Source of the DNA: Candidatus Latescibacterota bacterium | GTDB lineage: Bacteria > Latescibacterota > UBA2968 > UBA8231 | Direction of reading: 5' to 3' | Assembly (NCBI GenBank): GCA_965203355.1 | Contig: OZ241889.1 | Coordinates: forward strand, 3,136,001 to 3,200,000 | Length of the DNA stretch: 64,000 nucleotides | Part shown: piece after piece, positions 14,041 to 33,910 of the stretch | Layout of the letters: each line of letters opens with the position of its first letter | Numbering within the stretch: position 1 is the stretch's first letter | Notes under the pieces: generated by a model | Told to the model about the DNA's origin: nothing | The model's input: only the letters and a program-made list of their open reading frames with translations | The model's database searches: none | Position numbers and translations under genes: made by a program

Positions 14041-14355
14041 CTAAAAAGATAGACTTAGGGATTTGATGGTTTTGGCCGGTGCCCCGAGATCGGTGGGACT
14101 TGCCAACGCGGCCGGGCAGAGCAATACCTCTTCCCGCTTCTGTTGAGGAAGGGGATCGAGGGGAATAGGCTGATAAATGAATCTAGAGAATGCCCGAGAA
14201 AATCGGGGGGGGGGGGGTAACTCATTGTTTTTTAACGACTTACGGCAAAAAATAAAGCTCGGTATTGGCGTTATTTTAAGCGTTGAATAAGGTACAGCCA
14301 TCGCATCAAGTACCGCTCTGCAATGGTATTCTTTTACTATCGACGCTGTATCCAT
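14041..14355 (-). CDS. putative poly-C-containing leader ORF (copy A, in frame)
   Basis: 104-aa ORF whose TAG overlaps the TAGGAGG RBS of DLP1; homologous to 33398-33879. Confidence 0.5.
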   Translation of the reverse strand: MDTASIVKEYHCRAVLDAMAVPYSTLKITPIPSFIFCRKSLKNNELPPPPRFSRAFSRFIYQPIPLDPLPQQKREEVLLCPAALASPTDLGAPAKTIKSLSLSF

Positions 14356-14388
14356 GTCCTGCTTAATCCGCCTAAGAGTGCCCGCAAG
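14090..14388. repeat. leader cassette copy A (diverged direct repeat of 33630-33910), with G13 tract at 14205-14217
   Basis: Shared blocks: ctcttcccgcttc, G-run plus taa..cattgttttttaacga, ggcgttat, ccatgtcctg, ttaatccg and ccgcaag. Confidence 0.85.
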
Positions 14389-14415
14389 CTAAGCTATCGG
14401 TTTAAGTTCAGCAAG

Positions 14416-14443
14416 AAACTATTACGCTATTTTTCTGTGTCAA
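14416..14443 (-). promoter_or_regulatory. possible sigma70 promoter for the leader/dynamin operon
   Basis: TTGACA-N16-TAGTTT on the minus strand. Confidence 0.35.
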
Positions 14444-14522
14444 TACAAAACTGGATTAGCTTCGTGATAACCTACAAAAACGCCGTCATACGCCTATCTT
14501 GTCAAGAGCAGCACACTGCCCC

Positions 14523-16907
14523 CTAGCGCACCAGCAGCAACTTGCGCGTCTGCCGCTCGCGGCCAGCCCGTAGCTGGTACAAATACAATCCCGAAGCAAG
14601 CGGACGTCCCTGCCCGTCGCGGCCATCCCAATGCAGCACGTGCCGGCCAGCCGGCCGCTGGCCACCAACCAGCGTCGCTACGTGCTGCCCGGTGAGCGTA
14701 TAGACTTTCAGTTCGACCTCTTGGGCGCGGTCGAGCGCATAGCGGATCGCGGTCTGGCCGTTGAACGGATTGGGGAAATTCTGCTCCAAACCGAAGGGCT
14801 GCGGCCTCGCGTCTTCACGCGCCTCGCGGACGGCGGTGGGCGCGGCAAACTCCGTGCGCACCAGCCGCAGATCGTCAATGTAAAAGTGCCCTTCGACATT
14901 GGCGGCAAAGCGCACGGTCTCTATCGGCTGGTCGAGATTGCCGAACGCGCTTAAGGGAATTTCTAGCACCTGCCATTCCTTGCGCCCCAAATCCAACTCA
15001 CCCGCTCCTTCGCCCAAAAGCACGACCCGCCGGAAGCCACCGCTCGCCAACACCACCTCGACCACATCGCCTTCGGCCGGCACCACATCGCCGGGATGGA
15101 TCGCCAGCCGCAGCGCCCGATAGCCCACCGTCTCGATAGGCGTTGGCGGTGCCAGGTCTAACTGCCAAGGCAACAGCCGCGTCAGGGGGGCGGCGGTCAG
15201 CACGCCGGCCATCGTGCCGGTAAAAACCGGGCCGCTTCCGTCAAAGTCAAAGCGATCCAAACCCAAACCGGCCTTGGCGGTCCAGCCCGCAGCCAACTCG
15301 TCATCCGCGATCGTCAAATCCTCAGCCGGCAGCACTACCAACGTGTGCATGAGCGCGATTTCAAACGGACCTTCCCCGGTATTTTGCACCACCTTCACCG
15401 CGATCGGCTTGCGGCCGTTGGCCTGTGCGCCCGCCAAGGTAGCCGCCAGCCGATAGCGTCCGTCGCCCAAGTCCGCAAGCGGCGTTTCGGCCTCGCCGCC
15501 CAAGGCACTCAGATCCGCGGTTACCACCGGCGGCGGCGCTCCCCGGTCAAAGCGCGTCAGCGCAATCGCCGCCGACAAGTCGAGGGCCTGACCAGCCAAG
15601 ACCGTATCCGGTGGCTCAACCTCCCACTGCCCCATCAACGGCCCCATCCGCACCCGAAAAACCGCTTGGGTCGCGTGATCGCTGGAAACGTAGAGTGCCC
15701 CTTGGGCATCGCTTGCCAAGCCCACCGGCTTGCCCCAAACCCGGTTGCTACTCGGATTGGGACGAAAGCCGGTGAGAAAATCGGCTACTTGGGCCTTTTG
15801 CCCGTCTGGATCGCTAAAAACCACCATCACCTTATAGCCTAAATCGTTGCCCCGCACACCAGCGCGCAGCGCGACAAAGGCTTGGTTGTGGTATTCGGCG
15901 GGAAATTGATCGCCGGTATAAAAGTGGATCGCCATCGGCGCCGTGTGAGCCGCGACCGTGGCAACCGGCCTCGCCATCCGCTCAACGTCAAGCGTATCCT
16001 CGCGCGTAAAAGGCGCGATCGAGCGAAAGTACTCGCCAATCTCAAAGTCAACCCACGCCTGATAGCCGTGCGCCAGCGGCCAGCCGTAGAATCCACCCTC
16101 GCGCACGATGACAATGGTCTCAGGAGGTACGTCGCGCCCATTGGGAAAGCGGTCGCGGTCGTGGCCGTTGTTGGTCGCCCACAATGCGCCGGTAAGCGGA
16201 TGCAGCGCCAAACCTATGGCATTGCGCAAGCCGCGGGCAAAAATGCGCCGTCCCATGCCGTCGAGGTTAAAGGCCAGTATAGTGGCGCGCTCGGGATCGC
16301 GCTCGCGGCACAAATCGCAGGAGGATCCTTGATGCACGTATATGCGCTCGTTGGCCGCGTCGAAGACGATGGTGTGCGTAACGTGCTCTGCGCCGCCTAA
16401 ACCGGGGATCCACGTCGCCAGATCCGGGATAAAGACCGCGCGCTCTTCGTAAAAGCCGTCGCCATCGCCGTCCCTGAAGCGCACGACCTCATCGGTATCG
16501 GCCACGTACATGGCCCCCTGATAAAAGGCCACGCTATTGGGCCACAGCAGATCGTCGGCCACCGTCCGCACTTCGTCGGCCCGCCCATCCCGGTCGCGGT
16601 CGGGCAACGCCACAACGCGCCCGGTGCGATTGGGATCGGCCCTCCACTCGCTATTGCCTCGGGTGCCCATGACCGCCACGTGCAACACGCTGTCTGGACT
16701 CCACGCCATCAGCCGCGCCTTGCCGAGATCCTCGGCGAACAATTCGACGACAAAACCGGGCGGGACGTTTAAGGTCCGACTCTCCAGCCCTGCTACCGGG
16801 ACCGGCTGGAGGTGGAGGTCGATTTTTGGCGTCAGATAGACTTCGCCGGGTGCTTGGGCATAGACGCTGCTGACGAAGAGGCCAAGGGCAACAAGCAAAC
16901 GCATCAT
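14523..16907 (-). CDS. PQQ-dependent glucose/sorbosone dehydrogenase family protein with C-terminal FlgD-Ig/T9SS type A-like domain
   Basis: Signal peptide; FARGLRNAIG, NNGHD, GGFYGWP, AHTAP, GKPVG and LYVSSD motifs; C-terminal QNFPNPFN...WDGRD...SGLYLY...KLLLVR. Confidence 0.85.
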   Translation of the reverse strand: MMRLLVALGLFVSSVYAQAPGEVYLTPKIDLHLQPVPVAGLESRTLNVPPGFVVELFAEDLGKARLMAWSPDSVLHVAVMGTRGNSEWRADPNRTGRVVALPDRDRDGRADEVRTVADDLLWPNSVAFYQGAMYVADTDEVVRFRDGDGDGFYEERAVFIPDLATWIPGLGGAEHVTHTIVFDAANERIYVHQGSSCDLCRERDPERATILAFNLDGMGRRIFARGLRNAIGLALHPLTGALWATNNGHDRDRFPNGRDVPPETIVIVREGGFYGWPLAHGYQAWVDFEIGEYFRSIAPFTREDTLDVERMARPVATVAAHTAPMAIHFYTGDQFPAEYHNQAFVALRAGVRGNDLGYKVMVVFSDPDGQKAQVADFLTGFRPNPSSNRVWGKPVGLASDAQGALYVSSDHATQAVFRVRMGPLMGQWEVEPPDTVLAGQALDLSAAIALTRFDRGAPPPVVTADLSALGGEAETPLADLGDGRYRLAATLAGAQANGRKPIAVKVVQNTGEGPFEIALMHTLVVLPAEDLTIADDELAAGWTAKAGLGLDRFDFDGSGPVFTGTMAGVLTAAPLTRLLPWQLDLAPPTPIETVGYRALRLAIHPGDVVPAEGDVVEVVLASGGFRRVVLLGEGAGELDLGRKEWQVLEIPLSAFGNLDQPIETVRFAANVEGHFYIDDLRLVRTEFAAPTAVREAREDARPQPFGLEQNFPNPFNGQTAIRYALDRAQEVELKVYTLTGQHVATLVGGQRPAGRHVLHWDGRDGQGRPLASGLYLYQLRAGRERQTRKLLLVR

Positions 16908-17061
16908 GGGCAACCTTTCTGCAAGTGGCGTAAAAACCTGTCTCTAAAAACGCACTCGCCCCCCATAAGAGCAAAACGCGCCCGCCGTGCGTTCCCAACA
17001 GATAGCGCGTTCATCCACCGCGTCTTATTTTTCCGCGCACACCTCACCCGGAGAATTCATC

Positions 17062-18063
17062 ATGCGCATCGGCATCATGGGCGTCCACTACGGTCACATC
17101 GGCGGCATGATCCAATCCGCCTTACAGGCGGCAAACGGCCAAATCGTCGGCTTGGTTGAAGAAGACGACGCACTCGGCGCACGCTATTCATCCATCCCCC
17201 GCTTCGCCACCTTAGAAGACATGATCGACCGCGCCCAGCCCGAGCTAATCCTCGAGGGCTTGATCCACCACGAAAAAGCCGCGCTCGTAGAAACCTGCAC
17301 CCGCGCTGGCATTCACTTGCTGCTCGACAAACCCCTGTGCCACTCGTTGGACGACTGGGAGCGCATGCGCCGCGCCGTGGCCGCCAGCCCAATCCACGTA
17401 TCCATGTGGTTCACCTCGCGCAGCTATCCGCCGTTTGTCGCCTTGCGCCAAGCCATTCTCAGCGGCGCGCTCGGGACCATCGCCAGCCTCATCTCCACCC
17501 ACCCGCACAAAATCCGCCGCGCCACGGCTCCGGCTTGGTATTTCGACCGAGCGCAATACACGGGCGCGTTCCACGACCTCGCTTGCCACGGCGTCGATCA
17601 AATCCGCTGGCTCACCGGGGCCGAATGCGTCGGCGTCCACGCCCTCACCACCTGCAAGCGGTTCACGGCCAAGCCGCGCTTAGACGACCACGTGCAGGCT
17701 TCCTTTGAGTTGTCCGACGGCGCGTTGGCAACCCTCACCGCCGACTGGCTCACGCCCCAAGCCGCGCCCTCGTTTGGCGACACTCGCTTCATCGTCATGG
17801 GCACGACCGGCTCGGCGCATCTGCGCGCCTATGCCGACGATCACCTACTCATAGCCACCAACGAGCGCGGCCCGTACTCACCCGATTTGCCCGCAGACCG
17901 CAGCGGCTCGTTCGTCGCCAACCTGATTGACGCCATTGAACGCGGCACCGACCTCTTCATCCCCACCCACTCGGTGTTCGCCACAGCCCAAGCCTGCCTG
18001 CTGGCCCAAGAATCCGCCCGGCAAGGGGGCGCATTTCTCCGCATTCCGCCGTTTGCGCTATAA
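17062..18063 (+). CDS. Gfo/Idh/MocA family oxidoreductase
   Basis: MRIGIMG start after GGAG; HLLLDKP and DLACHGVD motifs. Confidence 0.85.
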   Translation: MRIGIMGVHYGHIGGMIQSALQAANGQIVGLVEEDDALGARYSSIPRFATLEDMIDRAQPELILEGLIHHEKAALVETCTRAGIHLLLDKPLCHSLDDWERMRRAVAASPIHVSMWFTSRSYPPFVALRQAILSGALGTIASLISTHPHKIRRATAPAWYFDRAQYTGAFHDLACHGVDQIRWLTGAECVGVHALTTCKRFTAKPRLDDHVQASFELSDGALATLTADWLTPQAAPSFGDTRFIVMGTTGSAHLRAYADDHLLIATNERGPYSPDLPADRSGSFVANLIDAIERGTDLFIPTHSVFATAQACLLAQESARQGGAFLRIPPFAL

Positions 18064-18342
18064 GTGATAAATTTGGCACGGAGAACCTGCTGCAAGCCGA
18101 TCTTGGTCCATGGCGACACGCCCGCCAACATCGGCCCCGAGCCGAGCGTTGCCCTGACCGCGGGCGACTTGGACGGATTGGGCGGATGTTCCTCGGCAAA
18201 GATCAATCGGGGCTTGTCGTGGAATGGCCCGGTACTACCGACGACCGCGGATCGCGTTCTATCTATCCAAACCGCCAACGCAGCAAAATAGTGGAACTTT
18301 GGGACTGGCTTGTCGCCCTAGGCACTTTCCGGTTGCCCCCTT

Positions 18343-20292
18343 TCAGCGCACCAGCGTCATCTTCCCCGCCCGTATCGTTCCTGCCGCAATCATCCTATAC
18401 ACATACATGCCGCTGGCCGCGGCCCGGCCCTGCTCGTCCGTGCCGTCCCACTGCGCGGTGTGCCATCCGGCTGCGCGGACCTCATCAACCAAAGTCCGCA
18501 CGCGCTGACCGGCCATGTTATACACATCAATGAGCACCGCCCCAGCCGCTGGCACTGCATAGCCGATCGCGGTCGTCGCGTTAAACGGGTTGGGATAATT
18601 CGCGGCCAACGCCCAAGCGGCCGGCTGCGACGCTGCCTCGGCGAGCACGGCGGTCCGTTCCGGTCCCACAATCCGCAGTTCGTCAAACCAGAACTGGATT
18701 CCGTCTAAAGCGTGGTGCTCGGCCACGATGTCGAAGCGATCTATCTCCTGCCAATCGAACGCGCCCATCGGATCGAACCACTCATGCTCCCAAGCCCCGT
18801 GCTCGGCAAAGTCGCGCAAGGGGATGCGCACCGCGTGCCACCCACCATCCCACGGCACCACCTGCTCATCTATCGTATAGCGCACGCGCCAAGGGCGATC
18901 GGCCGGGTCGTCCGTATCCGTATCGACTAAGCGGATGTCAAACGACGATCCCGGCGTATCTCCCCGCACCCAAAACTCGACCGCATAGCCCATCGCAGCC
19001 AACGCCGACAAGTCCTTGAAAGGCTTGAAGTCGAAGCCAATGAACCCGTAGAGCGGCACCCCGGTCCATCGCATGCAGTAGCGGCCCACCGCTGGCGCCA
19101 CCTCGTCATAGTAATCGACCGTACCCGCACTGAGGTGGTTGGACGCGACCAAGTACAGGCCGAGAAAGTCGTCGTAGAGCACAAACCCCTGCTGGTCTGG
19201 CTCGGCGACAAAATCCCGTTGCGGCGGCACATTCAGCCCCAACGCCTCTAGCAACGGCACGTTCAGGTCAAAATCAAACAACTCGCTCGACCCGCGCTCG
19301 AACAGCCCAAAACCACCGCGATAGTCCCAAATGGTCCACGCGATGCCCCGGTCCTCCAAATGCTGCCGCACCACCTCGTACCACAAGACGCGGTCGCTGT
19401 TGGGGCTGTTCGGGCTGTACACCCCAAACTCCCCGCAAAATAGCGGCACCCTGCGCTCCTGCTGAAAGGCCGCCGCCTCGTCGATCCGTATGCGCACCTG
19501 CGTGATAGTGCCCTCTTGGCTGTACTTGCCCAGTGCCGTGCCGACCCACGTGCTCTGCAAGGGCGAGGGCAACGCCGGCATCCGCGCCCGCTCGTAGGGA
19601 AAGGGCACATCGCGCAGCGGGACTAGCGAGGGATTGGTCCAGCTAGCGCCTTGGTGGGTAAAGACAAACGGCTCGTAAAAATGAAAGGTGTATAGGAGGT
19701 TGTCATCGGCAAAAACTGGCATCCGGTTCAGGTTGCGAAAGCTGTTCCAGTTGGCCGGACCAACGACAATCGCGTGCTGCTGATCCACGTGCCGGATCGC
19801 GTCAATCACCTGCTGCTGAATCGCGTTCCAAGCCGCGTCGCTAATGCCGTGCGGCTCGTTGAGTATCTCGTAGTAGAGCGGGGCTGGATGCGCGGCAAAA
19901 TGCGCGGCGAGTTGGGTCCACACCGACACCAGCGCGTTGGCGATGCCTGGCGACGTGCTCTCCGCTGGATCAAACGTGTGGTTGTCCAAAATCAGATGCA
20001 GCCCTAACTCGTCGGCCCAATCCGCAATTGGATCGAGAAAGGCGTAGAGCAAGGGATCGATGCGATAGTCCGGCGGGCCGCTGGTCATGGCGTGTAAGTT
20101 GATCGGCAAGCGCACTACGTCGCAGCCGAGCTGTTGGATCTGCGCGAAATCGGTCCGGCCAAACTTGGCAAAATGCACGTGCTGCGCGCTGGACGCTTGC
20201 AGCCAATTGGTCATATTGACGCCCCGGCTAAACCGAGCCTCAGCACCCCACGCGGCGGAACACATCAATAAGAACACTGTTGATTTTAGCAT
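18343..20292 (-). CDS. GH5 glycoside hydrolase with carbohydrate-binding module and FlgD-Ig/T9SS type A-like tail
   Basis: RGVN, VRLP, LDNH, acid/base YEILNEP, TFHFY, nucleophile GEFG and WDY motifs; C-terminal NYPNPFN domain. Confidence 0.9.
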   Translation of the reverse strand: MLKSTVFLLMCSAAWGAEARFSRGVNMTNWLQASSAQHVHFAKFGRTDFAQIQQLGCDVVRLPINLHAMTSGPPDYRIDPLLYAFLDPIADWADELGLHLILDNHTFDPAESTSPGIANALVSVWTQLAAHFAAHPAPLYYEILNEPHGISDAAWNAIQQQVIDAIRHVDQQHAIVVGPANWNSFRNLNRMPVFADDNLLYTFHFYEPFVFTHQGASWTNPSLVPLRDVPFPYERARMPALPSPLQSTWVGTALGKYSQEGTITQVRIRIDEAAAFQQERRVPLFCGEFGVYSPNSPNSDRVLWYEVVRQHLEDRGIAWTIWDYRGGFGLFERGSSELFDFDLNVPLLEALGLNVPPQRDFVAEPDQQGFVLYDDFLGLYLVASNHLSAGTVDYYDEVAPAVGRYCMRWTGVPLYGFIGFDFKPFKDLSALAAMGYAVEFWVRGDTPGSSFDIRLVDTDTDDPADRPWRVRYTIDEQVVPWDGGWHAVRIPLRDFAEHGAWEHEWFDPMGAFDWQEIDRFDIVAEHHALDGIQFWFDELRIVGPERTAVLAEAASQPAAWALAANYPNPFNATTAIGYAVPAAGAVLIDVYNMAGQRVRTLVDEVRAAGWHTAQWDGTDEQGRAAASGMYVYRMIAAGTIRAGKMTLVR

Positions 20293-20402
20293 GGCAGGAA
20301 GTTAGGCGTACCGCCGCTCCCAAACAACGCGCCCGGGCATGGTCCTTTCATGCTGCGCCTGAATTGCAAACCTACGCAGAGGCACTTTTCCCCTACGTTT
20401 TC

Positions 20403-21839
20403 TTAGGGCAACGCCACCTCGTCTCCAGTTTCCACCTGCCAAGCGCGAATCCGCTCCCTCAGTTCATCAACTCGCGCTTGCTGCGTGCGCTGGTGGTACA
20501 AATTCTCCAGTTCGTGCGGGTCCGCGTTCAGGTCGTATAGCTCGCCTTGGCCCTTGCCGTACAGGTTGAGCTTCCAGCCATCGGCCGCGACAACGGTGCG
20601 AAGGGGATGCACCAAGCTGCGGTTCGGCTCGGCTTCGCCGATCGAGGCCGGCGGATGGCCGTCGGCACCGCTCCACTCGACAAATATGTCATGGGCCGTC
20701 AAGTCCTCGCGACCGCACAGCACCGGCACCCGGCTCTGCCCCGGCAAATGGTCTGGCACGGCTATCCCCAGCAAGTCGAGCAGCGTGGGCACCAAGTCGA
20801 TATGACTGAACTGGCCGCTGATTCTCCGTGGCGGCGCGTCCAGCATGGGCGCACGCAGCAGCATCGGCACCTTGATCGACTCCTCGTACATCAGGGTCTT
20901 GCCCAAAATCCCGTGATCGCCCATGAGCTCGCCGTGATCCGATGTAAAAATCACAATAGTATCATCGGCCTTGCCGCTTTCGTCTAGCGCCTGAAGGATC
21001 GTAGCCACCGAGCGATCCACCAGCGTCACATTGCCCCAATAGCGAGCCATCAACCCGCGCCAGCCAGCCTCGGTCTGCAAGTCCAACCCGTAGTTTTCCG
21101 AGGCCGAGTAAAAAGCCGCCATCAGCCGCACAAGCAAGGGCGCGTCGTCGGGCGGAGGCTGCCGAAAGCTCGGCCCGGTCGGCAGCGTCTCCGGGGCGTA
21201 GTACTCGTTGAGCGGCCCAGTGTGCGGCGGATGCGGCTCCAGATAGCTGACGCACAGCGCAAACGGCGCCGCACCGCTCTGGCGAATGTACTCCGCAGCC
21301 TGATCGCCTAAAAACGCCGCCTTAGTGTATTCTTCCGGCATGGACGCTTCGGCGTGGCGCGAGAACACGCACTGGCCGAGGCTTTCCGCGTCGGGCGCAA
21401 ACCCCTGCTCGACCAAGAAGTGGTGATACGGGCTGAGCGCGTCCAGCCGCTCCGGCGTGGAATAGCAACCCCGATACGAGTCTTCGCTGCCGACCCACGT
21501 ATCAAACCCATGCTGGGGAAAAATCTCATCCCCCAAGTGCCATTTGCCCATAAAAGCCGTCTGATACGCCGGCGGCAGCATCTCGGCAAAAGTCGGCACC
21601 GCGGCCCGGAGCGGCACATTGCACGCCGGCACCCCAGCGGTGTGCGGCCATAGTCCGGTCAGCATGGTGGCCCGCGCCGGACTGCACACGGGCTGGCTCA
21701 CATAGGCGTTTTCAAAGACAAAGCCGGCCGCGGCCAGCCTGTCGAGGGCCGGGGTCTCGATCTGCTCGTTGCCGTAGCAGCGCAGCGTATCCACGCGCTG
21801 CTGATCGGTAAAGATGTAGAGTAGGTTGGGATGTTTCAT
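20403..21839 (-). CDS. sulfatase (S1, choline-sulfatase-like)
   Basis: PNLLYIFTDQQR, CSPARATMLTG, GKWHLG, SDHGE and ELYDL..DPHE motifs. Confidence 0.92.
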   Translation of the reverse strand: MKHPNLLYIFTDQQRVDTLRCYGNEQIETPALDRLAAAGFVFENAYVSQPVCSPARATMLTGLWPHTAGVPACNVPLRAAVPTFAEMLPPAYQTAFMGKWHLGDEIFPQHGFDTWVGSEDSYRGCYSTPERLDALSPYHHFLVEQGFAPDAESLGQCVFSRHAEASMPEEYTKAAFLGDQAAEYIRQSGAAPFALCVSYLEPHPPHTGPLNEYYAPETLPTGPSFRQPPPDDAPLLVRLMAAFYSASENYGLDLQTEAGWRGLMARYWGNVTLVDRSVATILQALDESGKADDTIVIFTSDHGELMGDHGILGKTLMYEESIKVPMLLRAPMLDAPPRRISGQFSHIDLVPTLLDLLGIAVPDHLPGQSRVPVLCGREDLTAHDIFVEWSGADGHPPASIGEAEPNRSLVHPLRTVVAADGWKLNLYGKGQGELYDLNADPHELENLYHQRTQQARVDELRERIRAWQVETGDEVALP

Positions 21840-22885
21840 GGGCGTCCCTCGCGGTTGGCACGCGAGCGCGGCGTCAGGTCAAAATAGGTCTGATGGCCAG
21901 CGAAAAAGCGCTCTAGTTCATCGACCATGAGGCGAAAAAAATGCGGGTATGCGTCGCCTGTGCGCCCGGAAAAGTGCGGGGTCAAAAATACGTTGGGCAG
22001 GTCGATGATCTCGCTGTCGGCCGGGATCGGCTCCGGGTCGAAGACATCAAAGCCCGCGGCAATGTCGCCTCGCTTGAGACGCTCGATCAGGGCCGCCGAG
22101 TCGAAGATCGGCCCGCGCGATACATTCACCAAAACCGCGCCCGCTGGAATGAGTTCCAACTCGCGCTGGCCAATCATACCTTCGGTCTGCGGCGTCAGCG
22201 GCGCGACGCAGACAATCGCATCGCACTGCGACAGCACGTTGTCCAGCGACGTCAGCAGAAAGCCCAACGCCTCGGCGAGTTCCGGCGACAAGTACGGATC
22301 GCAGACCCACATCTCGACCTCAAAGGGCCGCAACAGTTTCATCAGCCGCCGCCCCATGTGGCCGCCGCCGATCAAACCCACCCGCTTGCCGGTGAGCATT
22401 CCAGCCATCGGCTCAATGATGGACCGCTCGGTATCCTTGGCGAGGATGCGGCGGAAGAGCGCACCGGCATTGCGCATGGCAATCAGCATCAACGCCAAGG
22501 CCCATTCGGCCACCGGATAGGACGAGCCATTGGTCGTATCGACCGTGCGGATGCCCCTTGCCCACGCCGCGTCCAAATCGATCCGCGTGGCAAAGCGGTC
22601 GCCTTCGAGTTCGCCGATAAATCGCAAGCGAGGGGCGGCGTCCAAGATCGCCGCATCAACCCTCGGCGCACCGTGGCAGACCACGAGCGCATCTACGCCA
22701 GCCAGTTCCCTGGCCAACCGCGCCCGGGCCGCGGCGTCTTCGCTGGCTTGGTATATGTTGCCGCCCTCGCTGGCAAACCACGCCCAATCGGCAATCTGCG
22801 CTAGGCGCGTCAACTCGGCTGGCGGCAGATAGCCGTGGCGCACCCGCTCGCTACAGGCGATGAGTACGTGCGGACGATTTCCCAT
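21836..22885 (-). CDS. D-2-hydroxyacid dehydrogenase family protein
   Basis: VAEWAL, GLIGGGHMG, NVSRG, DVFDPEP and LTPH motifs. Confidence 0.9.
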   Translation of the reverse strand: MGNRPHVLIACSERVRHGYLPPAELTRLAQIADWAWFASEGGNIYQASEDAAARARLARELAGVDALVVCHGAPRVDAAILDAAPRLRFIGELEGDRFATRIDLDAAWARGIRTVDTTNGSSYPVAEWALALMLIAMRNAGALFRRILAKDTERSIIEPMAGMLTGKRVGLIGGGHMGRRLMKLLRPFEVEMWVCDPYLSPELAEALGFLLTSLDNVLSQCDAIVCVAPLTPQTEGMIGQRELELIPAGAVLVNVSRGPIFDSAALIERLKRGDIAAGFDVFDPEPIPADSEIIDLPNVFLTPHFSGRTGDAYPHFFRLMVDELERFFAGHQTYFDLTPRSRANREGRP

Positions 22886-22972
22886 TGATTCCTCCCTGGA
22901 TGGATGACAGCGGTTGGCACCGCACCGCCCTAAATAGCATATTTATCCCCGCCCCACAACAGTGGAGATCTT

Positions 22973-25985: not shown

Positions 25986-27223
25986 GCCGCTTTCGGCTGC
26001 GGGAATTCAACCGCAATGTCCGGCTGTTCTTCGCTTTTGGCACCTCAATCAACGCCGGCATGGCGCTTTTTTCTCTGCTGTACAATCTCTATCTACTGCG
26101 CCTGAGCTACCAAGAGGACTTCATCGGCCAAGTCGCCAGCATGGCACCGCTGGCGACCGGCCTATTGGCCCTACCCACCGGCATCCTGAGCGACCGCCTC
26201 GGCCGCCGCCCCTTCCTCATAGCCTCGGGGCTGCTGCTGGCTATCTCCCAGTTGGGCCTGTGCTTGACCACGGCGTCGGGCGCACTGCTGGCGTTTTCGT
26301 TTGTCGGCGGCGTGGCCATGGCCTTCGTCTGGGTCAACCACGTGCCCTTCCTCTCGGACAACGCCCACCCAGCGCGCCGCGCCGAAGCCCTCGCCATCTG
26401 GTCGGCCCTGCAAATAGTCGTCCGCATGCTCTTAAGCCTAATCGGCGGCTTCATGCCCGGGGTCATGGGCTACTTTCTCGGCCTTTCCACCGAGGCCCCC
26501 GCGCCCTTCCGCTACGCGCTGCTACTCGGCGCGGCGTGTTCGCTCATCGCCATCGTGCCGCTATTATACGCATCCGGTCAAGCCCGCCGCGCCAGAACAC
26601 CCGCGTCAGCCCGAGCGCCAGAGGCGGACGCGCCGACAGCCCCACCGTGGCGCGTCTTTGCCGCTATCACCGCCTTGAGCGGCACGCGCGGCTTCTCCAT
26701 GGGGCTGACGTACCCGTTCTTCAATGTGTTCTTCGAGGCTGAGTTAGGGGTCGGTCCGGCCGCGATCGGCGCCATTTTCTTCCTCAGCCAACTCGCCGGC
26801 CTACCAGCGACCTTTGCCGCGCCAACGCTGGTGCGCCGCTTCGGTCCGACGCTGACCATCCTTCCATCCCGCATTATGGGCGGCAGTGCCCTCGGGGTCA
26901 TGGGGGCCTTTATCAGCCTGCCGTTGGCCGTATCCATGTTCCTGCTCGTGCGCATCGGCGAAGTCATCGACAACCCGTCCGATCAGCACTTCTCCACCCA
27001 AGTGCTGCCCCGGCGCTTCTGGGCGCGCATCCAGGGCCTCCGCGTTTGTGGCTTCCAGCTTATGAACTTCCTCGGCAGCCTCATCGGCGGCATACTCATT
27101 CTCGACTATGGCTACGGGGCCGTTTTTGGCTTGGCTTGCGCGTCTCGTATTGCGAGCGGCCTGATCATGGCGGCTTTCTTCGGGCTGCGGCCAACGCGCT
27201 CCCTCGCAAGCGAACACCCATAG
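25964..27223 (+). CDS. MFS transporter
   Basis: About 12 hydrophobic segments and MFS motif A GILSDRLGRR. Confidence 0.9.
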   Translation: MPVGHALSRFRLREFNRNVRLFFAFGTSINAGMALFSLLYNLYLLRLSYQEDFIGQVASMAPLATGLLALPTGILSDRLGRRPFLIASGLLLAISQLGLCLTTASGALLAFSFVGGVAMAFVWVNHVPFLSDNAHPARRAEALAIWSALQIVVRMLLSLIGGFMPGVMGYFLGLSTEAPAPFRYALLLGAACSLIAIVPLLYASGQARRARTPASARAPEADAPTAPPWRVFAAITALSGTRGFSMGLTYPFFNVFFEAELGVGPAAIGAIFFLSQLAGLPATFAAPTLVRRFGPTLTILPSRIMGGSALGVMGAFISLPLAVSMFLLVRIGEVIDNPSDQHFSTQVLPRRFWARIQGLRVCGFQLMNFLGSLIGGILILDYGYGAVFGLACASRIASGLIMAAFFGLRPTRSLASEHP

Positions 27224-27264
27224 TTGAAACGCGCTTTTACCGCAAAAAATAAGATAGTGGTACG

Positions 27265-27384
27265 TTTTGAGATTTAGCTTTACTCCCGTTGCACGGGTCG
27301 CTCTCGCTCTGCCTGAACCCCGGCGACCCAAGCCCGACCTCAACCGGACCGCGACAATTGGAGATTGCAAAACGCATCACGACC
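27265..27384. repeat. direct repeat copy 1 (pairs with 34008-34109)
   Basis: Identical ttagctttactcccgttg block and a 46-bp block cccaagcccg...gattgcaaaa with one mismatch. Confidence 0.85.
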
Positions 27385-27429
27385 GAATGATTTGGTCTAA
27401 TCCCGCTTTGGCAGTACAGGGTAGTTGCC

Positions 27430-27568
27430 GACATGGACAATAGAAATGGGACCCGGCGTCGTGGACGGCGGGCAAACCTGTGCGCTGTCTAATTCCTAGC
27501 ATGGACAATAGACAGTGCGTTGTCTAATTCCCGACATGGACATCCCAGAACATTGAGGTCCCATTTCC
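27430..27568. repeat. nested short repeats and hairpins (catggacaataga; gcg.tgtctaattcc; gaaatgggacc/ggtcccatttc)
   Basis: Direct and inverted copies read directly from the sequence; related to the hairpin at 27682-27717. Confidence 0.7.
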
Positions 27569-27596
27569 ATAACTCGCCAACATCGTGCCGTGTATG

Positions 27597-27651
27597 CTAC
27601 TTGAGCAGCAGCATCTTGACGGCGAGGAAATCACCGCCCGCTTGCAAGCGG
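27597..27651 (-). pseudogene. remnant 3' end of a paralogous surface-protein gene (RLQAGGDFLAVKMLLLK*)
   Basis: Near-duplicate of the last codons and downstream flank of 27740..33394 (RLQAGGDFLDIKKMLLLK*). Confidence 0.8.
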
Positions 27652-27681
27652 TCCTCTAGGCTGTCGATCTGACGTTCATAA

Positions 27682-27717
27682 GAAAATGGGACCCCAGAAA
27701 ACTAAGGTCCCATTTTC
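27682..27717 (-). terminator. hairpin downstream of the surface-protein gene
   Basis: Perfect 12-bp stem GAAAATGGGACC/GGTCCCATTTTC 22 bp after the stop; weak U-tail. Confidence 0.6.
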
Positions 27718-27739
27718 GTAACTTGCGGTGCCGCGTATG

Positions 27740-30700
27740 CTACTTGAGCAGCAGCATCTTCTTGATGTCGAGGAAGTCGCCGCCCGCCTGCAAGCGGTAG
27801 AAGTACATCCCGGACGACACGCTCTGGCCACTATCGTTGGTCGCGTCCCACTCCACCGCATAGCGACCCGCCGCCTGATGCTCGGCGACCAGCGTCCGAA
27901 TCGGCTGACCCAGTACATTATACACGGTCAGCCCCACGTCCGCCGCCTGCGGCAACGCATACTGAATCGTTGTCTGCGGATTGAACGGGTTGGGATAGTT
28001 AGCTGCCAATGAGAACACGGCCGGGCGCGTCTGTAACGACACCGGCGCGGGCAATGCCAGTCGGTTGAAGCCCAACGCCCGGTCATACGTCTGGCTGTCG
28101 GTGATTTCGAGAGTCGTGTGTGCAATCTCGGTCGTCGGACGGAAGACCAAGCGCAATATCAACTCGCCGTCCGAAACGACGTCACCGTGGGCGGCTACCG
28201 TCAACACGCCAGCCTGATCGGCCAGCACCTGCGGCGTAGCAAACGCGCTCCCGCCCAGCGGCTGATCGGTCCGCGCCTCGACGAAGGTTAGCTGGTCGGC
28301 GTCATAGGCTATCTGCAAGCCGTAGCCTTTGACCGCCACGAAGTCGGCTAACCGCACATTAACGATGAACTCTTCTCCCACGCTCGGCAGTTCTGTCGGC
28401 GCGTCCAGATACAGCCGCGCGTCCCCGTTCAGCCCGGTCCGCAGCGGCACCGGCTTGCCCGCCGCAGCCACGCTGCGACCGAAATGGTCGGCCAACACGA
28501 AGAAGTCGTCGAAGTCAATCGTCCCATTCGGGGCCAAGTCAAACGCTGGATCAAAACCCGCGTCGCCTGCCGTCAAGCCGAAGCGGTCGGCCAACACGAA
28601 GAAGTCGTCGAACCCGATACGATGGTCGGCGCCGAACAGCCCCAACAGAGCCTGCCCTTGGCTATCGGCCACCCGGTTGCGCACGGCCAACGCGGTATGC
28701 TCAACCGAATCGGTCTCGTTGTCTAAGTCGAAAGGCCGCACCTGATAGGTGTAATGCACCCCATGCTGCGCCGTCTCATCGACGAAGGACGCTACCCCAG
28801 ACGACACCTCGGCGACCACGGAAAACGCTTCTTCCCCGACCGCCCGGCGATAGATGCGGTAGCCATGCACACCGACGACCGGCTCGACTGGCGCCGGGCC
28901 TAGTGCTCCGGCCACGACCCCTTGCAGCACCTGATCCGACGGCGACAGCGTCCACGTCAGCGCGATGCGACCGCCCTGATCGTCCGGTGCATCCAACACC
29001 TGCAACGCCGACACGGCCAACGGCGCGATGTCGTCAGTCGCCCGCACAGCCTCGGCCGTCCAAGTAATCGACGAACTCAGCACACTACTGACGACATTCA
29101 GCTTCGGTGCCACGCCGCGAGCGTAAGCCAATGCGTCCGGCAGCAACGATGCCAACACCGGCCCCTCACCGCCCTGCGCGGCGGTGCGGCTGGCTTGCAG
29201 CGTCTTCGCCATCTGCGCGTAAGGCTGCGTCAAATCACCCGCCTCGACGAACACGGCTTTGGCCGCATGATGCGTGGTGCGCCCCCCGCGCTCGGCGGCA
29301 ATGCCCCAGCGCGTCGAGACGTTGTCCAGCGTCGCCACGATAGCGCGGCCCATCGCCACGCCAGGCACGGCATCCACGTGCGCCCACGGCACCATCTCAT
29401 TTTCCAGCACCGGCAAGGCGCGGAAAATGCGATAGCCGTCCAGTGACTTATGATCAGCCGATAGTTCCCAAGACAGCATCACGAAACCGCCTTGGTCGCC
29501 TTGGCCGTCCGCACCTTTGTAGTCCTCGGCGACCAGGTTGGTCGGCGCCGACAGCGGCGGCTCCACCACCGCCATGCTCAACGGCAGGGACTGACTCGCG
29601 CCGCTGGCATCTACGACCGTGTAGGCCGCAACCGTCTCGCCCATCGTCGTCGGCGTCCCCGAAATCGTCCGGGTGGCCGGGTCAAACGACAGACCCGCTG
29701 GCAAACCCGACACGCTATACGTCAGCGGCGGGGTGCCCCCGGAGACCGCCGGCAACGTCAGGTTTGCTGGCACACCGACGGTGAATTGAATCATGTTGTC
29801 GGTGTGCGAATCGGCCGGATTGGCCTTGCCAGCACCGCTGTTGAGACCGAACAACGAACTCAGGTCGCCAAAGTCCAGCATCGCGTTGACTGTAATCGTG
29901 AACGTCAGCGAGACGCTTTCGGTGCCAGCCATCGCCGTGTAGGTGACCTCAACGGCCCCATCGGTCGCCGCGTCCGGTGTGCCGGAAATCGTCCGGGTCG
30001 CCGCGTCAAACGACAGCCCGGTCGGTAGCCCCGACACGCTATACGTGATGGCCCCCTCGCCGCCCAACGCCACCGGCAGGACCAACGGCGTAATCGCCGT
30101 GCCCGCCGTATAGGCATGTGCGGCAATCGAAGTGCCCTCGACGAAAGACAAGGGGATCATCGTCTCCCTATCGCCGTCATTATCGTCCATCATCCCGCTG
30201 TCTGTGTCGGTCAGCACCAGCGTCGCCGAACCCGCCGTCAAGCCCGGCAGCATCGCGTTGAGCACCACCGTCTCGTCGCCTTCGGCCATGCCGTCGGCCG
30301 TCGGATCGATCAGCAGGCGCGTCGAACCCATAATCGAACCGGCGGCAATGGTAATCGTCGGATTGAACAGCGCCGAGTAGTCCAAATCGCGCGCGGCACT
30401 CGAAGCCTCGTCAATCGAGACGGAGACCGTCGCGGCCTCGGCCAACGGCTTGCCGTCCAGCGCGGCCATGACCATCACTTCCGTCAATTCCGCCGACTCG
30501 CTGAGCGCGCTCGGCATCACCGACAGCACCAAAGACGTGCTCGGCGTCTCGTCGTCGGAAATCCGCAGGTCCACCTGCCCCCAGCCGCCCGAAGCCGCCG
30601 CCCGAACCCCCAAGTGCTTATGACCATCCGCCGAAGCGTTGTCGATGGGCGACAGGAAAAGCGTCGTCCAACCCATCGTCTCGCCAGCCGCAATGGTGAT

Positions 30701-33394
30701 CGTCCCCGCTAATGTCGCGGTGTAATCCACGTCGCGGGTGGCCGCCGCTCCGCTGGCCGGCGGCACAATCGTGAAGCGGACCCGCTCGGCGGCTGGAGCC
30801 GCGCCCGACAAGGTCGCTGTAATTCGGATTTCAGCCGTCTCGCCGTTTTCGCGCACGGCCGATTGCGAAGCCATCACGCTGGCGACGCCCACAGTGACCG
30901 GCGCGGCTTCACTCACCGTGATGGTGAAGGTCTTTGCGCCGCTGTCGCCATCGCTATCGACCGCCACATAGAGGACCGAGGCCATGCCCGCCAGCGTCGG
31001 CGTACCCGAAATCGTCCGGGTCGCCGCGTCAAACGACAGACCCAGCGGCAGGTCCGACGAGACCTTGTACATCAGCGTTCCTTGCCCGCCCGTGGCCGCG
31101 GGCAAAACCTCGCTAAACGCTTGACCCACCGTCGCTTCAAAGGCTAACGCGGCAGTGCCGAAACTCGGCCTTCCCGTGTCCGCGGTCGTATCCGAAGAAC
31201 CAGAATCATCCATCTTCGCCGCGTCTTTCAGCGTGATCTTCGTGGTACTGACCGCGATCTTGTCGTCGTCTTGGTTCTTGAGATTGTCCGTGAGCTGCTT
31301 GATCGTGATCGTCTCGTCGTTGTCGTCTTTCCCGTCGTTGACCGGCGTGACCGTGATCGTCGTCGAGCCGGTGATCTCGCCGCGCGGAATTGTCAGCGAG
31401 CTAAGCACCGCCGTGTAATCCACGTCCCGCGTTGCCGACTTGTCCGGTGTGCGATCCACGACCAACGTGATAGTCGCCGCCGCGTCGAGCACCTTGCCGT
31501 CTAACGTGCCGGTCACCGTCACCGTCGTCGCCCCGGCGTCCTCTTTGATTTCGCTCGGATTGACCGACAGCGTGATGTTCTCGCTCAGCGTCTCATCGTC
31601 CGTGATCTTGAACTCCACCGTATCCATCTGAGACGCTTCGGTGCCGACCTTCGCTATCACATCGAACGTCCACGGATTATTCACACCGCTGTTGTTCACC
31701 GGCGCGACCCGCAGCGTCGCCGTGCCTTTGGTGTCGCCGGCCGGGATCGTCAAGCCCTCAATGACCTCCACCTCGTAATTCACATCGCGCGTCCCCTCAC
31801 CCGCCACGATCTGAAAGTCCACCGCCTTCGCGCCGGTTAAGGCTTTCTCCAATTCAACCGTCATCGCAATGTCCCTCGTCCCCCCTTCCTCGCGGATCAT
31901 CTTCGGACTCAGCGTAAAGTCCTTGATCTGCGCAACCGCAACGTCCTCAATCGTGATTTTGCCGGGGTTGACCTTAACCTGAAAGGCAAAAGAGTCCACA
32001 TACTTTATGACATCACCAGCAGTGTAGATATCTTCAAAGTCTCCATCACCGTTAAAATCAATACGGCCGGGAAAATTATAACTGCTGGCGAAGTGGTTCA
32101 CTTGTTCCCTTAAGTCCCCTTTACCCGAGGGCACCACATAGGTATCCAAATAATCGCCATCCCAGGTAAAGTCGATCCCCAAGTCTTTTTCCACCAAGAC
32201 GGTCCCCGGCGCGAGGTTGTCGTTTATATCCCCATCGCCGTTGAGATCAAATCCGAACCCTACGTCGTCGTTCCCGCCTCTTCCGCCTCGTTCTTTGATG
32301 GTAACGCCGGCGGGTACGATAAATCCATCGCCGTCGAAGGTACCATCCCGGTTAAGGTCTATCCGGACCTGCTTATCCTTATTCATCCGTTTCTTGACCA
32401 CCCCCCTCACGGTCTCACTACCGACCCCCAGCTCGATCGTGCCCGCCTTATTATCCGGATCGAGGGTGAACGTCGTCTTCCCAGAAATCTTCCGCTTCGG
32501 AACGGTCAGAGTACCCAACCCCCTAAGCGAGTAATCCACATCGCGCGTCAAATCACCGCCAGAAACAACCAATTGGTATTTAAGGTCTGAGCTCGTCAAC
32601 GCGCCGCCATCCACCGTCGCCGTCACTTCAATCGAAGTCGCATCCGCCTGCTTGCTGAGCTTGGAAGGCGAAAAAGAGAGATCTATGTCCGTCGGCAAAT
32701 GATCGTCGTCAATGATCTCGATAAATGCGTCACATCCAACACTACCTTTAGGTTCATGACAGAGCCGATCATTCTTCTTTAGGTTTACGTTCGATTCTGT
32801 ACCTGGAGGGTGACTCAGCCTAAACATGAAAAGAGTATTAGGTAGTTTTTCTTGATCAACTACCGAACTGGGATCCGAGTTAAATGTCTGTGCTCCCCCC
32901 CTTGCGTTATAACCCACGACGGCGAATGTATCCTTATCAACCGACACTGTCGCTTTGTCTGGGGCTGGGCCAGTTCCGATATAATCGTTGTCTATCGGGG
33001 TTATGGTTATAGTCCCGGTCGCCTTTTTCTCACCCTTCTTAATCGTCAAAGTGGGTAAGACTGCTGTGAATAACACATTGAGATATTTTCTGGAGAGCGC
33101 ACGCGTAGGGTTAGCTACTCGATCTGTTGCATGGGCACTCGAGTCTGAGAGAACCGCATGAAACTGAACATCTTTATCCGCCGCAGTGCCATCACAGGTT
33201 TCGACTGTAAGCACAACATCTTGCGCCCCACCGTCCTCGCGGATGAACTGCCGGTCCACAGAATACAAGTACTTATAGGTGTTACAGTTCTGAGCCGCAG
33301 CCTCCCCGGCCCAGCCCAACACCAAACTGGCCGCCAGCAAAAAAGGCACAAAAGCCAAGCGCGGCATCGGCACGAACAACTTCGCATGTATCAT
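27740..33394 (-). CDS. 1884-aa secreted surface protein: Calx-beta-like repeats, He_PIG Ig domains, FN3-like, EF-hand/dockerin-like pair, cohesin-like and FlgD-Ig/T9SS type A-like tail
   Basis: Signal peptide (AAA-Q), repeated ATRDVDY modules, three LP.GLSFD.ATRTISGTP modules, FDDFFVLAD.FG twice and a NYPNPFN C-terminal domain. Confidence 0.85.
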   Translation of the reverse strand: MIHAKLFVPMPRLAFVPFLLAASLVLGWAGEAAAQNCNTYKYLYSVDRQFIREDGGAQDVVLTVETCDGTAADKDVQFHAVLSDSSAHATDRVANPTRALSRKYLNVLFTAVLPTLTIKKGEKKATGTITITPIDNDYIGTGPAPDKATVSVDKDTFAVVGYNARGGAQTFNSDPSSVVDQEKLPNTLFMFRLSHPPGTESNVNLKKNDRLCHEPKGSVGCDAFIEIIDDDHLPTDIDLSFSPSKLSKQADATSIEVTATVDGGALTSSDLKYQLVVSGGDLTRDVDYSLRGLGTLTVPKRKISGKTTFTLDPDNKAGTIELGVGSETVRGVVKKRMNKDKQVRIDLNRDGTFDGDGFIVPAGVTIKERGGRGGNDDVGFGFDLNGDGDINDNLAPGTVLVEKDLGIDFTWDGDYLDTYVVPSGKGDLREQVNHFASSYNFPGRIDFNGDGDFEDIYTAGDVIKYVDSFAFQVKVNPGKITIEDVAVAQIKDFTLSPKMIREEGGTRDIAMTVELEKALTGAKAVDFQIVAGEGTRDVNYEVEVIEGLTIPAGDTKGTATLRVAPVNNSGVNNPWTFDVIAKVGTEASQMDTVEFKITDDETLSENITLSVNPSEIKEDAGATTVTVTGTLDGKVLDAAATITLVVDRTPDKSATRDVDYTAVLSSLTIPRGEITGSTTITVTPVNDGKDDNDETITIKQLTDNLKNQDDDKIAVSTTKITLKDAAKMDDSGSSDTTADTGRPSFGTAALAFEATVGQAFSEVLPAATGGQGTLMYKVSSDLPLGLSFDAATRTISGTPTLAGMASVLYVAVDSDGDSGAKTFTITVSEAAPVTVGVASVMASQSAVRENGETAEIRITATLSGAAPAAERVRFTIVPPASGAAATRDVDYTATLAGTITIAAGETMGWTTLFLSPIDNASADGHKHLGVRAAASGGWGQVDLRISDDETPSTSLVLSVMPSALSESAELTEVMVMAALDGKPLAEAATVSVSIDEASSAARDLDYSALFNPTITIAAGSIMGSTRLLIDPTADGMAEGDETVVLNAMLPGLTAGSATLVLTDTDSGMMDDNDGDRETMIPLSFVEGTSIAAHAYTAGTAITPLVLPVALGGEGAITYSVSGLPTGLSFDAATRTISGTPDAATDGAVEVTYTAMAGTESVSLTFTITVNAMLDFGDLSSLFGLNSGAGKANPADSHTDNMIQFTVGVPANLTLPAVSGGTPPLTYSVSGLPAGLSFDPATRTISGTPTTMGETVAAYTVVDASGASQSLPLSMAVVEPPLSAPTNLVAEDYKGADGQGDQGGFVMLSWELSADHKSLDGYRIFRALPVLENEMVPWAHVDAVPGVAMGRAIVATLDNVSTRWGIAAERGGRTTHHAAKAVFVEAGDLTQPYAQMAKTLQASRTAAQGGEGPVLASLLPDALAYARGVAPKLNVVSSVLSSSITWTAEAVRATDDIAPLAVSALQVLDAPDDQGGRIALTWTLSPSDQVLQGVVAGALGPAPVEPVVGVHGYRIYRRAVGEEAFSVVAEVSSGVASFVDETAQHGVHYTYQVRPFDLDNETDSVEHTALAVRNRVADSQGQALLGLFGADHRIGFDDFFVLADRFGLTAGDAGFDPAFDLAPNGTIDFDDFFVLADHFGRSVAAAGKPVPLRTGLNGDARLYLDAPTELPSVGEEFIVNVRLADFVAVKGYGLQIAYDADQLTFVEARTDQPLGGSAFATPQVLADQAGVLTVAAHGDVVSDGELILRLVFRPTTEIAHTTLEITDSQTYDRALGFNRLALPAPVSLQTRPAVFSLAANYPNPFNPQTTIQYALPQAADVGLTVYNVLGQPIRTLVAEHQAAGRYAVEWDATNDSGQSVSSGMYFYRLQAGGDFLDIKKMLLLK

Positions 33395-33397
33395 TAC

Positions 33398-33879
33398 TCA
33401 ACCTCCTGAAGGAGAGCATCGCCCAAGGGCGAAAGGGAAAGGGTAGAAGGAAATGGACTTAGCCGTAGAAATAAGCCGTTGTGTTCCTGCGTTTTTGCTA
33501 CCGTTGAGCAAGACGAATCCCGCGCGGCGAGCGCTCGGGCTACGACGTCGCCGGCCGATAACCGCGAGGCTATCGAGGATGGGTTTCGTTTGTGATGTGG
33601 ATGGGTGGTCAGTGGCCAGTGGCCAGTGGTCGGTGGGGCTTACCGACGCGGCCGGGCATAGCAAGGCCTCTTCCCGCTTCCGTAGAGGAAGGGAAGCGAG
33701 GCGAATAGGTTGGCGAGTGAAGCTAGGGCTTAATGCCCAAGAAATTCGGGGAGGGGGGGGGGGGGTAAATCATTGTTTTTTAACGATTTATGGCGATTAA
33801 GTCTCGGCGTTATCGCAAGTGTAGAACAAGGCACCGCTCCCGGCGATAGTGTTCTTTGTGCTATTGACGTTGTGCCCAT
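33398..33879 (-). other. putative poly-C leader ORF (copy B, frameshifted at the G13 tract 33753-33765)
   Basis: ATG 33879 reads MGTTSIA...KSLKNNDLPPPPLPEFLGH* and stops at 33730. One extra C would join it to the open frame ending at 33398, just before the surface-protein ATG. Confidence 0.55.
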
Positions 33880-33910
33880 GTCCTGTTAATCCGATTAAGA
33901 AGGCCGCAAG
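33630..33910. repeat. leader cassette copy B (diverged direct repeat of 14090-14388)
   Basis: Same block order as copy A. Confidence 0.85.

Follow-up and report, generated by a model that had tools for sequence, protein, structure and literature searches.

Why should the same short element, built around a run of C residues, stand ahead of two unrelated loci in the genome of an uncultured bacterium? The question is raised by a stretch of 64,000 nucleotides (nt) from a Candidatus Latescibacterota bacterium (GenBank assembly GCA_965203355.1, contig OZ241889.1, positions 3,136,001 to 3,200,000 of the forward strand), here called the window, whose first letter is position 1 in all coordinates below. 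Copy A of the element precedes an operon of dynamin-like GTPase genes, and copy B precedes the gene of a 1884-residue surface protein. The answer favoured here, with a probability of roughly 0.7, is that a clade of Latescibacteria uses the element as a modular cassette for translational phase variation. The first-pass annotation of this DNA had proposed a reusable upstream open reading frame (ORF) that switches the next gene through translational coupling or polarity; that reading is probable and has the support of the comparative evidence.

Both window copies lie on the minus strand and align with each other over about 330 nt, which gives one element of about 300 nt. A repeat search of the window recovers it in two blocks, family D4 (14073-14186 and 33613-33726, 81% identity) and family D10 (14205-14246 and 33753-33794, 93% identity). 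In each copy the start context is caggacATG, followed by about 40 codons that are not identical in A and B, then by a 25-nt motif that can be written for the two copies as TAA(G/A)TCGTTAAAAAACAATGA(G/T)TTA, and then by a run of 13 C residues on the coding strand, a long slippage-prone homopolymer by a threshold of about 8 nt or more. The distance from ATG to tract is 138 nt in copy A and 114 nt in copy B. The two diverged copies, their aggacATG starts, these distances, the G13 run on the plus strand of each and the aligned peptide blocks had all been described in the first-pass annotation, and all are reproduced by alignment and translation.

The same is true of what the annotation had said about the fate of the two frames. 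In copy A, the leader frame reads through the tract and ends on a TAG that sits within TAGGAGG, at the Shine-Dalgarno (SD) sequence of the first dynamin-like gene and 13 nt ahead of its ATG. In copy B, the frame as assembled stops early, at 33730, and one additional C (G on the plus strand) opens a frame that continues to a TGA 3 nt before the ATG of the surface-protein gene, with the junction GGAGGT-TGA-GTA-ATG; the two other post-tract frames meet stops 20 and 27 nt past the tract. From the assembled lengths we infer that the dynamin-like operon would be ON and that the surface protein would be OFF, by one C.

Members of the same family are found in other genomes of the phylum. The family is defined by the 25-nt motif TAAGTCGTTAAAAAACAATGAnTTA with a poly-C tract behind it, and a phylum search that tolerated 3 mismatches gives 71 matches of motif plus C run in 11 of 167 genomes of the Latescibacteria phylum, with 1 to 22 per genome. 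The reversed pattern, used as a control, gives 0 matches in all 167 genomes, and because 71 core matches in 11 genomes stand against none, the repeat is far beyond chance. A scan for the exact core finds one species genome, an uncultured Latescibacteria metagenome-assembled genome, and one metagenome contig; when copy A is compared with that genome by BLAST, only the core of about 40 nt and the C run recur. The 76 distinct copies considered below comprise 70 of the 71 matches (one match in genome G145 is omitted), divergent BLAST hits in genome G001, a second, tandem motif at locus L060, the metagenome contig L016 and the window copies. All 76 are followed by a long ORF on the same strand, and they are spread across whole chromosomes in both orientations. 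The presence of the motif beside G or C runs in relatives is what the first-pass annotation had anticipated, and the downstream genes, when listed, are indeed mutually unrelated: they encode leucine-rich-repeat (LRR) lipoproteins, fn3/GSDH and PEGA proteins, M23 peptidase, WD40 propeller, PQQ dehydrogenase, dockerin/LDL-repeat, Calx-beta and HlyD-type proteins, and GT2 glycosyltransferases, among others. Most of the products are secreted proteins or lipoproteins, as judged from 33 representative proteins scanned, and the genes as a set, mostly for secreted proteins, lipoproteins or glycosyltransferases, resemble those of known contingency loci.

Across the motif, an open frame is maintained. 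Exactly one frame is open in 72 of the 76 copies, and in 68 of the 76 the sole open frame is frame 0, which reads K S L K N N x L and then proline codons, the motif itself stopping the two other frames. An in-frame ATG is present 33-420 nt upstream in 65 of these 68 copies, commonly at 42 nt (with a GGAG ribosome-binding site, RBS) or at 126-132 nt. The tract would lie inside a translated frame, so that changes in its length would shift that frame. At four loci (L017, L025, L034 and L042) the homologous upstream ORF arrives in frame 1, a substitution removes the frame-1 TAA of the motif, and only frame 1 is open; these compensating substitutions argue that selection keeps a continuous reading frame rather than the KSLKNN peptide. 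Variation of the core in frame-0 copies is mostly synonymous (TCG/TCA/TCC/TCT, AAG/AAA, TTA/TTG, AAT/AAC). Moreover, among 12 paralogues in genome G133 the substitutions are spread evenly over the codon positions, with 11/21/13 before the tract and 28/26/31 after it, and the leader product of copy A has no Pfam match and no homologue among 5.8 billion predicted proteins. On these grounds a conserved leader peptide is rejected as the object of selection, and it appears to be the open frame that is kept.

Two other roles for the motif were considered and rejected. An RNA hairpin within it is contradicted by the unique cores, in which positions 5 and 19 are complementary in 20 of 48 and positions 3 and 21 in 31 of 48; folding of whole leaders gives z-scores of -0.87 and -2.36. 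An ATG within the motif as start codon would need a G at position 19, which is found in only 23 of 60 unique cores.

Beyond the tract, the copies follow one of two layouts. In the fused layout, seen in 16 copies, one post-tract frame continues for more than 900 nt into a signal peptide, a lipobox or a GT2 domain, and there is no start codon between tract and domain, which is apparently the classical design of a contingency gene. Paralogues with intact ORFs are found in different states in this layout: L027, with C13, is ON and L072, with C9, is OFF, their downstream sequences being 95.5% identical, and L082 and L044 form another such pair, in versus out of frame. The other 60 copies, the two of the window among them, have the leader layout: the downstream gene is equipped with an SD and an ATG of its own, and one C-rich post-tract frame, open over 190-450 nt, comes to its stop at the next start. 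The leader may end in an ATGA or GTGA stop-start overlap (the G133 family, L023/L043, L034, L035, L083 and L017), in TGAcccATG, or with a stop inside or just before the SD; at L016 the gene ATG follows the tract after only 27 nt.

The coincidence of leader end and gene start was assessed with starts picked automatically by SD score, which assigned one to 59 leader copies. In 38 of these 59 the longest post-tract frame stops between -25 and +20 nt from the predicted start. When leaders were clustered into families and the first member of each was taken blind to outcome, 8 of 17 end at the start, compared with 1.89 expected from dinucleotide shuffles (P = 1e-4). Additionally, the two remaining frames both meet a stop within 40 nt in 36 of the 76 copies, against 17% at control positions.

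The tracts themselves are hypervariable, from 3 to 24 nt with a median of 14, and 59 of the 76 copies have at least 9 nt. Loci that differ in tract length can have flanks that are 91-99% identical. Examples are L018 (C14) and L028 (C12), which are in different genomes and have flanks 91-97.5% identical, L023 (C12) and L043 (C15), and L017 (C13) and L029 (C8), the members of the last two pairs again being in different genomes. In the case of the window copies, the G13 run of copy A is reproduced without difference in assembled contigs of two studies (X1 and X4), a contig of X5 breaks within that tract, at 14206, and the tract of copy B is bridged by none of the listed assembled contigs. No RNA run is among the sequencing runs listed as containing the stretch. 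Run X6, labelled a sponge metagenome, contains a related strain (90-95%) in which 528 other letters replace 14142-14332 and the flanks match.

Whether the cassette is truly portable can be judged from the relatives of each window copy. Orthologues of the first dynamin-like gene are found in genomes G133 (79% identity) and G140 (73%), and the 700 nt upstream of both contain neither the motif nor a C or G run of at least 6. The cassette was therefore acquired before the dynamin-like operon in the lineage of the window, which supports portability, and the homology of copies A and B is limited to the first 300 nt or so. In copy B, the entire leader and the first 20 or so codons of the gene are homologous to 12 paralogous loci in G133, and the 1884-residue protein has a conserved signal peptide in common with these 12 paralogues; copy B, by this homology, belongs to a multigene family of surface proteins that have the switch in common. 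Because its cassette extends into the signal peptide of the paralogue family, only copy A shows true portability.

From these parts a course of events can be proposed. A start codon, a short or roughly 40-codon stretch that is not conserved, the 25-nt one-frame motif and a hypermutable poly-C tract read as polyproline would follow one another, and about half of the copies add early stops in both other frames. Replication slippage would change the tract length and with it the frame. In the fused layout, the correct frame would run directly into the signal peptide or the enzyme. In the leader layout, it would keep ribosomes on the 190-450-nt C-rich, G-poor leader as far as the next RBS or start, and translation of the leader would guard the transcript against being terminated too early, most likely by Rho, and/or pass ribosomes to the next gene by termination and reinitiation. 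With the tract out of frame, poly-C and leader RNA would be left naked and the gene would be silenced.

Ribosome-gated Rho polarity would be the main link between leader and gene, and termination-reinitiation at the ATGA overlaps a second one, compatible with the first. Polarity is suggested because Rho loads onto C-rich RNA that lacks structure, and ribosomes translating the RNA prevent this, as stated in a review (PMC12360218). The leaders have a C content of 0.326 and a G content of 0.240, a difference of +0.087, with C exceeding G in 51 of 56; the corresponding difference in the downstream coding sequences is -0.022, with C exceeding G in 21 of 56, and upstream of the motif C exceeds G in 12 of 56. 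A rho gene is present in all five cassette-bearing genomes searched (Rho_RNA_bind matches above cut-off), and the C-rich, G-poor leaders would qualify as rut-like segments. A consensus scan finds a sigma-70-like promoter about 190 nt upstream of the tract of copy B, ahead of the leader ATG, which would place the tract inside the transcript; in the same kind of scan no site passed for copy A. An Rfam scan of 13000-35000 returns only a tRNA-Val (34147-34223, minus strand). Some leader families have small GC hairpins followed by C/U-rich sequence, and family alignments of the leader 3' ends show no convincing covarying helix.

Several observations weigh against this reading. The ON copies, 24 of 76, make up the one-third expected from random switching, but the same one-third is expected if the frame is irrelevant, and the tract lengths come from assembled contigs, in which homopolymer lengths are error-prone. 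Ahead of the leader ATGs, the SD is poor or missing. The downstream SD sites are strong, and sequestration beyond that of shuffles is absent in 13 of 15 representatives, so the unmasking of a hidden RBS is not supported as the link, and the window leaders have no significant intrinsic terminator (no terminator-like site in copy A, and two weak ones inside the leader of copy B, no more than in shuffles). In the motif, AAAAAAC, the first T (T0) and TTA are invariant, a nucleotide conservation beyond the needs of the peptide, and the motif is apparently under an extra nucleotide-level constraint that the switch leaves without explanation. The check put forward in the first-pass annotation, whether one frame always ends at the next RBS, bears out its reading in the majority described above, and 21 of the 59 leader-type copies end away from the predicted start. 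For copy A, the coincidence of stop and RBS is not significant alone (shuffle P 0.17-0.49), and a second frame is open nearly as far (147 vs 161 nt). The cassette-less orthologue in G133, moreover, already has TAGGAGG (...tctatcttttaTAGGAGG), which implies that the stop of copy A on the RBS was not built for that purpose.

An alternative is regulation at the level of RNA or the ribosome with no heritable switching, in which slippage of the polymerase or the ribosome, or stalling on polyproline, gives mixed frames or a graded output (depending, for example, on EF-P or on cytidine triphosphate) and DNA lengths drift neutrally. Tracts of up to 24 nt are far longer than a DNA switch needs, the run encodes polyproline in all frames, and directly ahead of it, in frame, stands an invariant A AAA AAC heptamer; attenuation that depends on an upstream ORF and on proline codons and is coupled to Rho is described in the review (PMC12360218). 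The differences in DNA tract length between near-identical loci speak against this explanation, as does the stop that a -1 shift at the heptamer mostly hits (T18-R19-A20), and it is considered unlikely as a replacement for DNA-level switching, with which it can coexist. The nucleotide conservation of the motif beyond codon needs might also reflect a transcriptional switch, in which the motif, with its A-tract and imperfect palindrome, is an activator or UP-like site and the poly-C spacer sets the phasing to the core promoter. The conserved post-tract sequence (…ATTCT…GCACTAAGCNCTA…) could contain promoter-like hexamers, and some copies have -10-like ATAAT strings just upstream of the motif. 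Such a switch would not account for the 16 genes that lack a start codon after the tract, for the single open frame in 72 of 76 copies with its compensating motif mutations, or for leader frames that end at the next start. The tract lies inside ORFs and past start codons, not between promoter elements or between an activator site and a core promoter; the promoter-like site of copy B is far upstream, and the gap between tract and ATG at L016 is short. A transcriptional switch is therefore held to be very improbable.

That the element does nothing at all is scarcely more credible. An inert dispersed repeat or a decaying relic is best argued for copy A, where the 5' piece of a paralogue would have been copied before the dynamin-like genes and frames would end near the RBS by chance: the frame coincidence is not significant there by itself, the G133 and G140 orthologues do without motif and C or G run, TAGGAGG pre-exists in G133, and the related strain in X6 has the 528-letter replacement. 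Copy A nevertheless retains its ATG, the motif, an uninterrupted C13 and an open frame to the RBS, and the family as a whole is under constraint, so this alternative is given a small chance. The invariant AAAAAAC between variable arms, and the arrival of the cassette before unrelated genes, could also suggest that the motif moves or swaps the 5' ends of genes as a site for site-specific recombination or mobility, its 9-bp arms forming an imperfect inverted repeat on either side of an asymmetric 7-bp spacer. Recombination between copies that occur chromosome-wide in both orientations would, however, rearrange the genome, the arms are often unpaired (see the 5-19 pair above), and no recombinase lies beside the copies examined, although no systematic recombinase search was made; the idea is held to be extremely improbable. 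The translational phase-variation cassette is preferred to all of these. The coordinates of the window features on which the preferred reading draws are collected in Table 1.

Table 1. Features of the two cassette copies and their target genes in the window.
Feature	Position	Strand	Remarks
Three dynamin-family GTPase genes, downstream of copy A	8358..14028	-	12250-14028, 10364-12253 and 8358-10367
TAGGAGG, copy A leader stop overlapping the SD of dynamin-like gene 1	14037..14043	-	dynamin ATG at 14028
Copy A leader ORF, 104 codons	14041..14355	-	ATG 14355, stop TAG 14043-14041; through-reading (predicted ON) frame with C13
Copy A poly-C run, coding-strand C13 (plus-strand G13)	14205..14217	-	Pro codons
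Copy A 25-nt pre-tract motif, TAAGTCGTTAAAAAACAATGAGTTA	14218..14242	-	leader frame K S L K N N E L; stops in the two other frames
1884-aa surface protein	27740..33394	-	He_PIG Ig-like repeats, C-terminal T9SS sorting domain
Copy B post-tract leader	33398..33747	-	+1 C frame open 352 nt to TGA 33400-33398
Copy B leader ORF as assembled	33730..33879	-	ATG 33879, early stop TAA 33732-33730; predicted OFF frame
Copy B tract, C13 (33753-33765), then T, then C4	33748..33765	-	G13 on +; TCCCC extra relative to copy A
Copy B 25-nt motif, TAAATCGTTAAAAAACAATGATTTA	33766..33790	-	family motif match
Sigma-70-like promoter (predicted), TTGACA-18-TATATT	33964..33993	-	11/12 matches, consensus scan only; upstream of copy B leader ATG

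Individual members of the family have peculiarities of their own. Locus L060 (genome G140) contains a full motif with C20-21 and then, 58 nt apart, a degenerate second motif, TAAGTCTTTAAAAAACAGTAAGTTA, with TCCC, which is a probable tandem duplication of the switch core within one leader. In G145, 16 copies among loci L069-L086 have the identical core TAAGTCCTTGAAAAACAACGACTTA, and where the downstream genes were scanned or inspected they encode paralogous LRR lipoproteins whose lipobox is ...GCSDSAP; the set suggests that one switched gene family has expanded recently. At L005 (G001), the stop of the long leader frame overlaps, as ATGA, the start of a short ORF whose product resembles the C-terminal part of a DDE transposase (...YGQRWTLETTF...), and an insertion there seems to have parted the cassette from its gene.

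The surroundings of copy B also contain repeats. A 61-nt direct repeat (27327-27387 and 34052-34112, 92% identical) flanks the surface-protein gene together with copy B; its upstream copy adjoins the tRNA-Val, there is no integrase between the repeats, and the pair could be an insertion mark or a recombination scar. A 33-nt duplicate of the 3' end of the surface-protein gene (27585-27617 and 27728-27760, 97%) lies 143 nt downstream of the gene, and contigs of X1 and X5 skip or repeat portions of 27439-27727, which together point to rearrangement among the 3' ends of paralogues. In runs X1, X5 and X6 the summed contig depth over 27310-31971 is higher than in the flanks by a factor of 10-40, which indicates that the repeat domains of the 1884-residue protein are highly multicopy in these samples. 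Elsewhere in the window, a segment (59791-60726) directly after a gene resembling that of tyrosyl-tRNA synthetase contains 45-nt inverted repeats at a spacing of 846 nt. Between them are two minus-strand ORFs that overlap (60000-60620 and 59804-60070), and the ORF pair looks like a frameshifted transposase of the insertion-sequence type. Four tandem 33-nt units, 72-83% identical, lie in coding-looking sequence at 44585-44771 and would make an 11-residue repeat.

A bolder version of the preferred reading, offered tentatively and thought to be rather doubtful, is that the cassette is a self-contained movable module in which the poly-C tract is a ribosome-gated entry site for Rho and the 25-nt motif is read by a dedicated factor acting in trans, a protein or a G-rich small RNA, that sets the slippage rate or co-regulates 20 or more loci. 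The result would be a centrally governed 'phasome' in a possibly sponge-associated phylum, with cytoplasmic dynamin-like GTPases among its targets.

To our knowledge, nearly all known cases of phase variation by slippery repeats come from host-adapted pathogens, and we know of only one case, the pili of Streptococcus gallolyticus, in which a link from a DNA repeat to a separate gene through leader translation has been shown experimentally. In this environmental phylum, which is uncultured, a single shared switch module appears to control as many as 22 genes per genome, mostly genes for lipoproteins, LRR and Ig-like surface proteins or glycosyltransferases, and the leader layout would tie a DNA repeat to a separate gene through a long, non-conserved translated frame. 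The motif with its two-frame stop arrangement is a searchable signature for such switches in metagenomes, and the module is compact enough to be tested as a portable stochastic switch. If the reading is true, a phase-variable dynamin-like operon is a new kind of target; if Rho does enter at the tract, a single slippage event would flip the transcription of any gene placed behind the leader.

Each layout has counterparts among known systems. In Neisseria, Haemophilus, Campylobacter and Helicobacter, poly-G or poly-C tracts just after the start of genes for surface proteins and glycosyltransferases set the reading frame, and the 16 fused copies look exactly like these homopolymer contingency loci. 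The tracts of the pathogens share, as far as we know, no flanking motif across unrelated genes, and we know of them from host-adapted pathogens and not from an uncultured environmental phylum. The fim promoters of Bordetella pertussis contain a 'C-stretch' that acts on transcription initiation. The resemblance lies in a conserved cassette with a run of about 13-15 C residues before several surface-protein genes, and the difference in the position of the run, which in Latescibacteria is inside a translated frame and in Bordetella within the promoter. In the siaD gene of N. meningitidis, a poly-C tract is said, in work of Lavitola et al. from 1999, to be associated with Rho-dependent intracistronic termination. 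As at siaD, and as in the Rho termination gated by an upstream ORF at tnaC that is covered in the review (PMC12360218), a frameshift or halted translation would expose RNA on which Rho terminates. Unlike in those cases, as far as that source describes them, the polarity proposed here would start in a leader ORF that is dedicated to this role and non-coding-like, and would affect a gene separate from it, with Rho suggested by leader composition and by the presence of rho.

The leader layout has its closest counterpart in the leader-peptide attenuator of S. gallolyticus pil1 and pil3, in which a GCAGA repeat is combined with an intrinsic stem-loop terminator (Danne et al. 2014, PMC3894217). There, a repeat within a leader-peptide ORF alters how far ribosomes travel, and longer leader translation raises expression of the downstream genes for surface structures through its effect on premature transcription termination; a repeat in a leader ORF upstream of a separately initiated gene is likewise found in both window copies and in 57 others. 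In contrast to pil1/pil3 as described there, the repeat here is a C homopolymer of up to 24 nt with a 25-nt motif ahead of it, the leader extends over 190-450 nt and ends at the next start, the window leaders have no significant intrinsic terminator, and as many as 22 loci in one genome carry the module. A full-text literature search for Latescibacteria with phase variation returned one incidental paper only, and a search on homopolymeric phase variation with upstream-ORF coupling returned nothing that describes such a design. What would be new, then, is the combination of a shared 25-nt motif, a long leader ORF that runs from start to start, two layouts built from one module and many loci per genome, in a phylum with no earlier description of this kind and with a dynamin-like operon among the probable targets.

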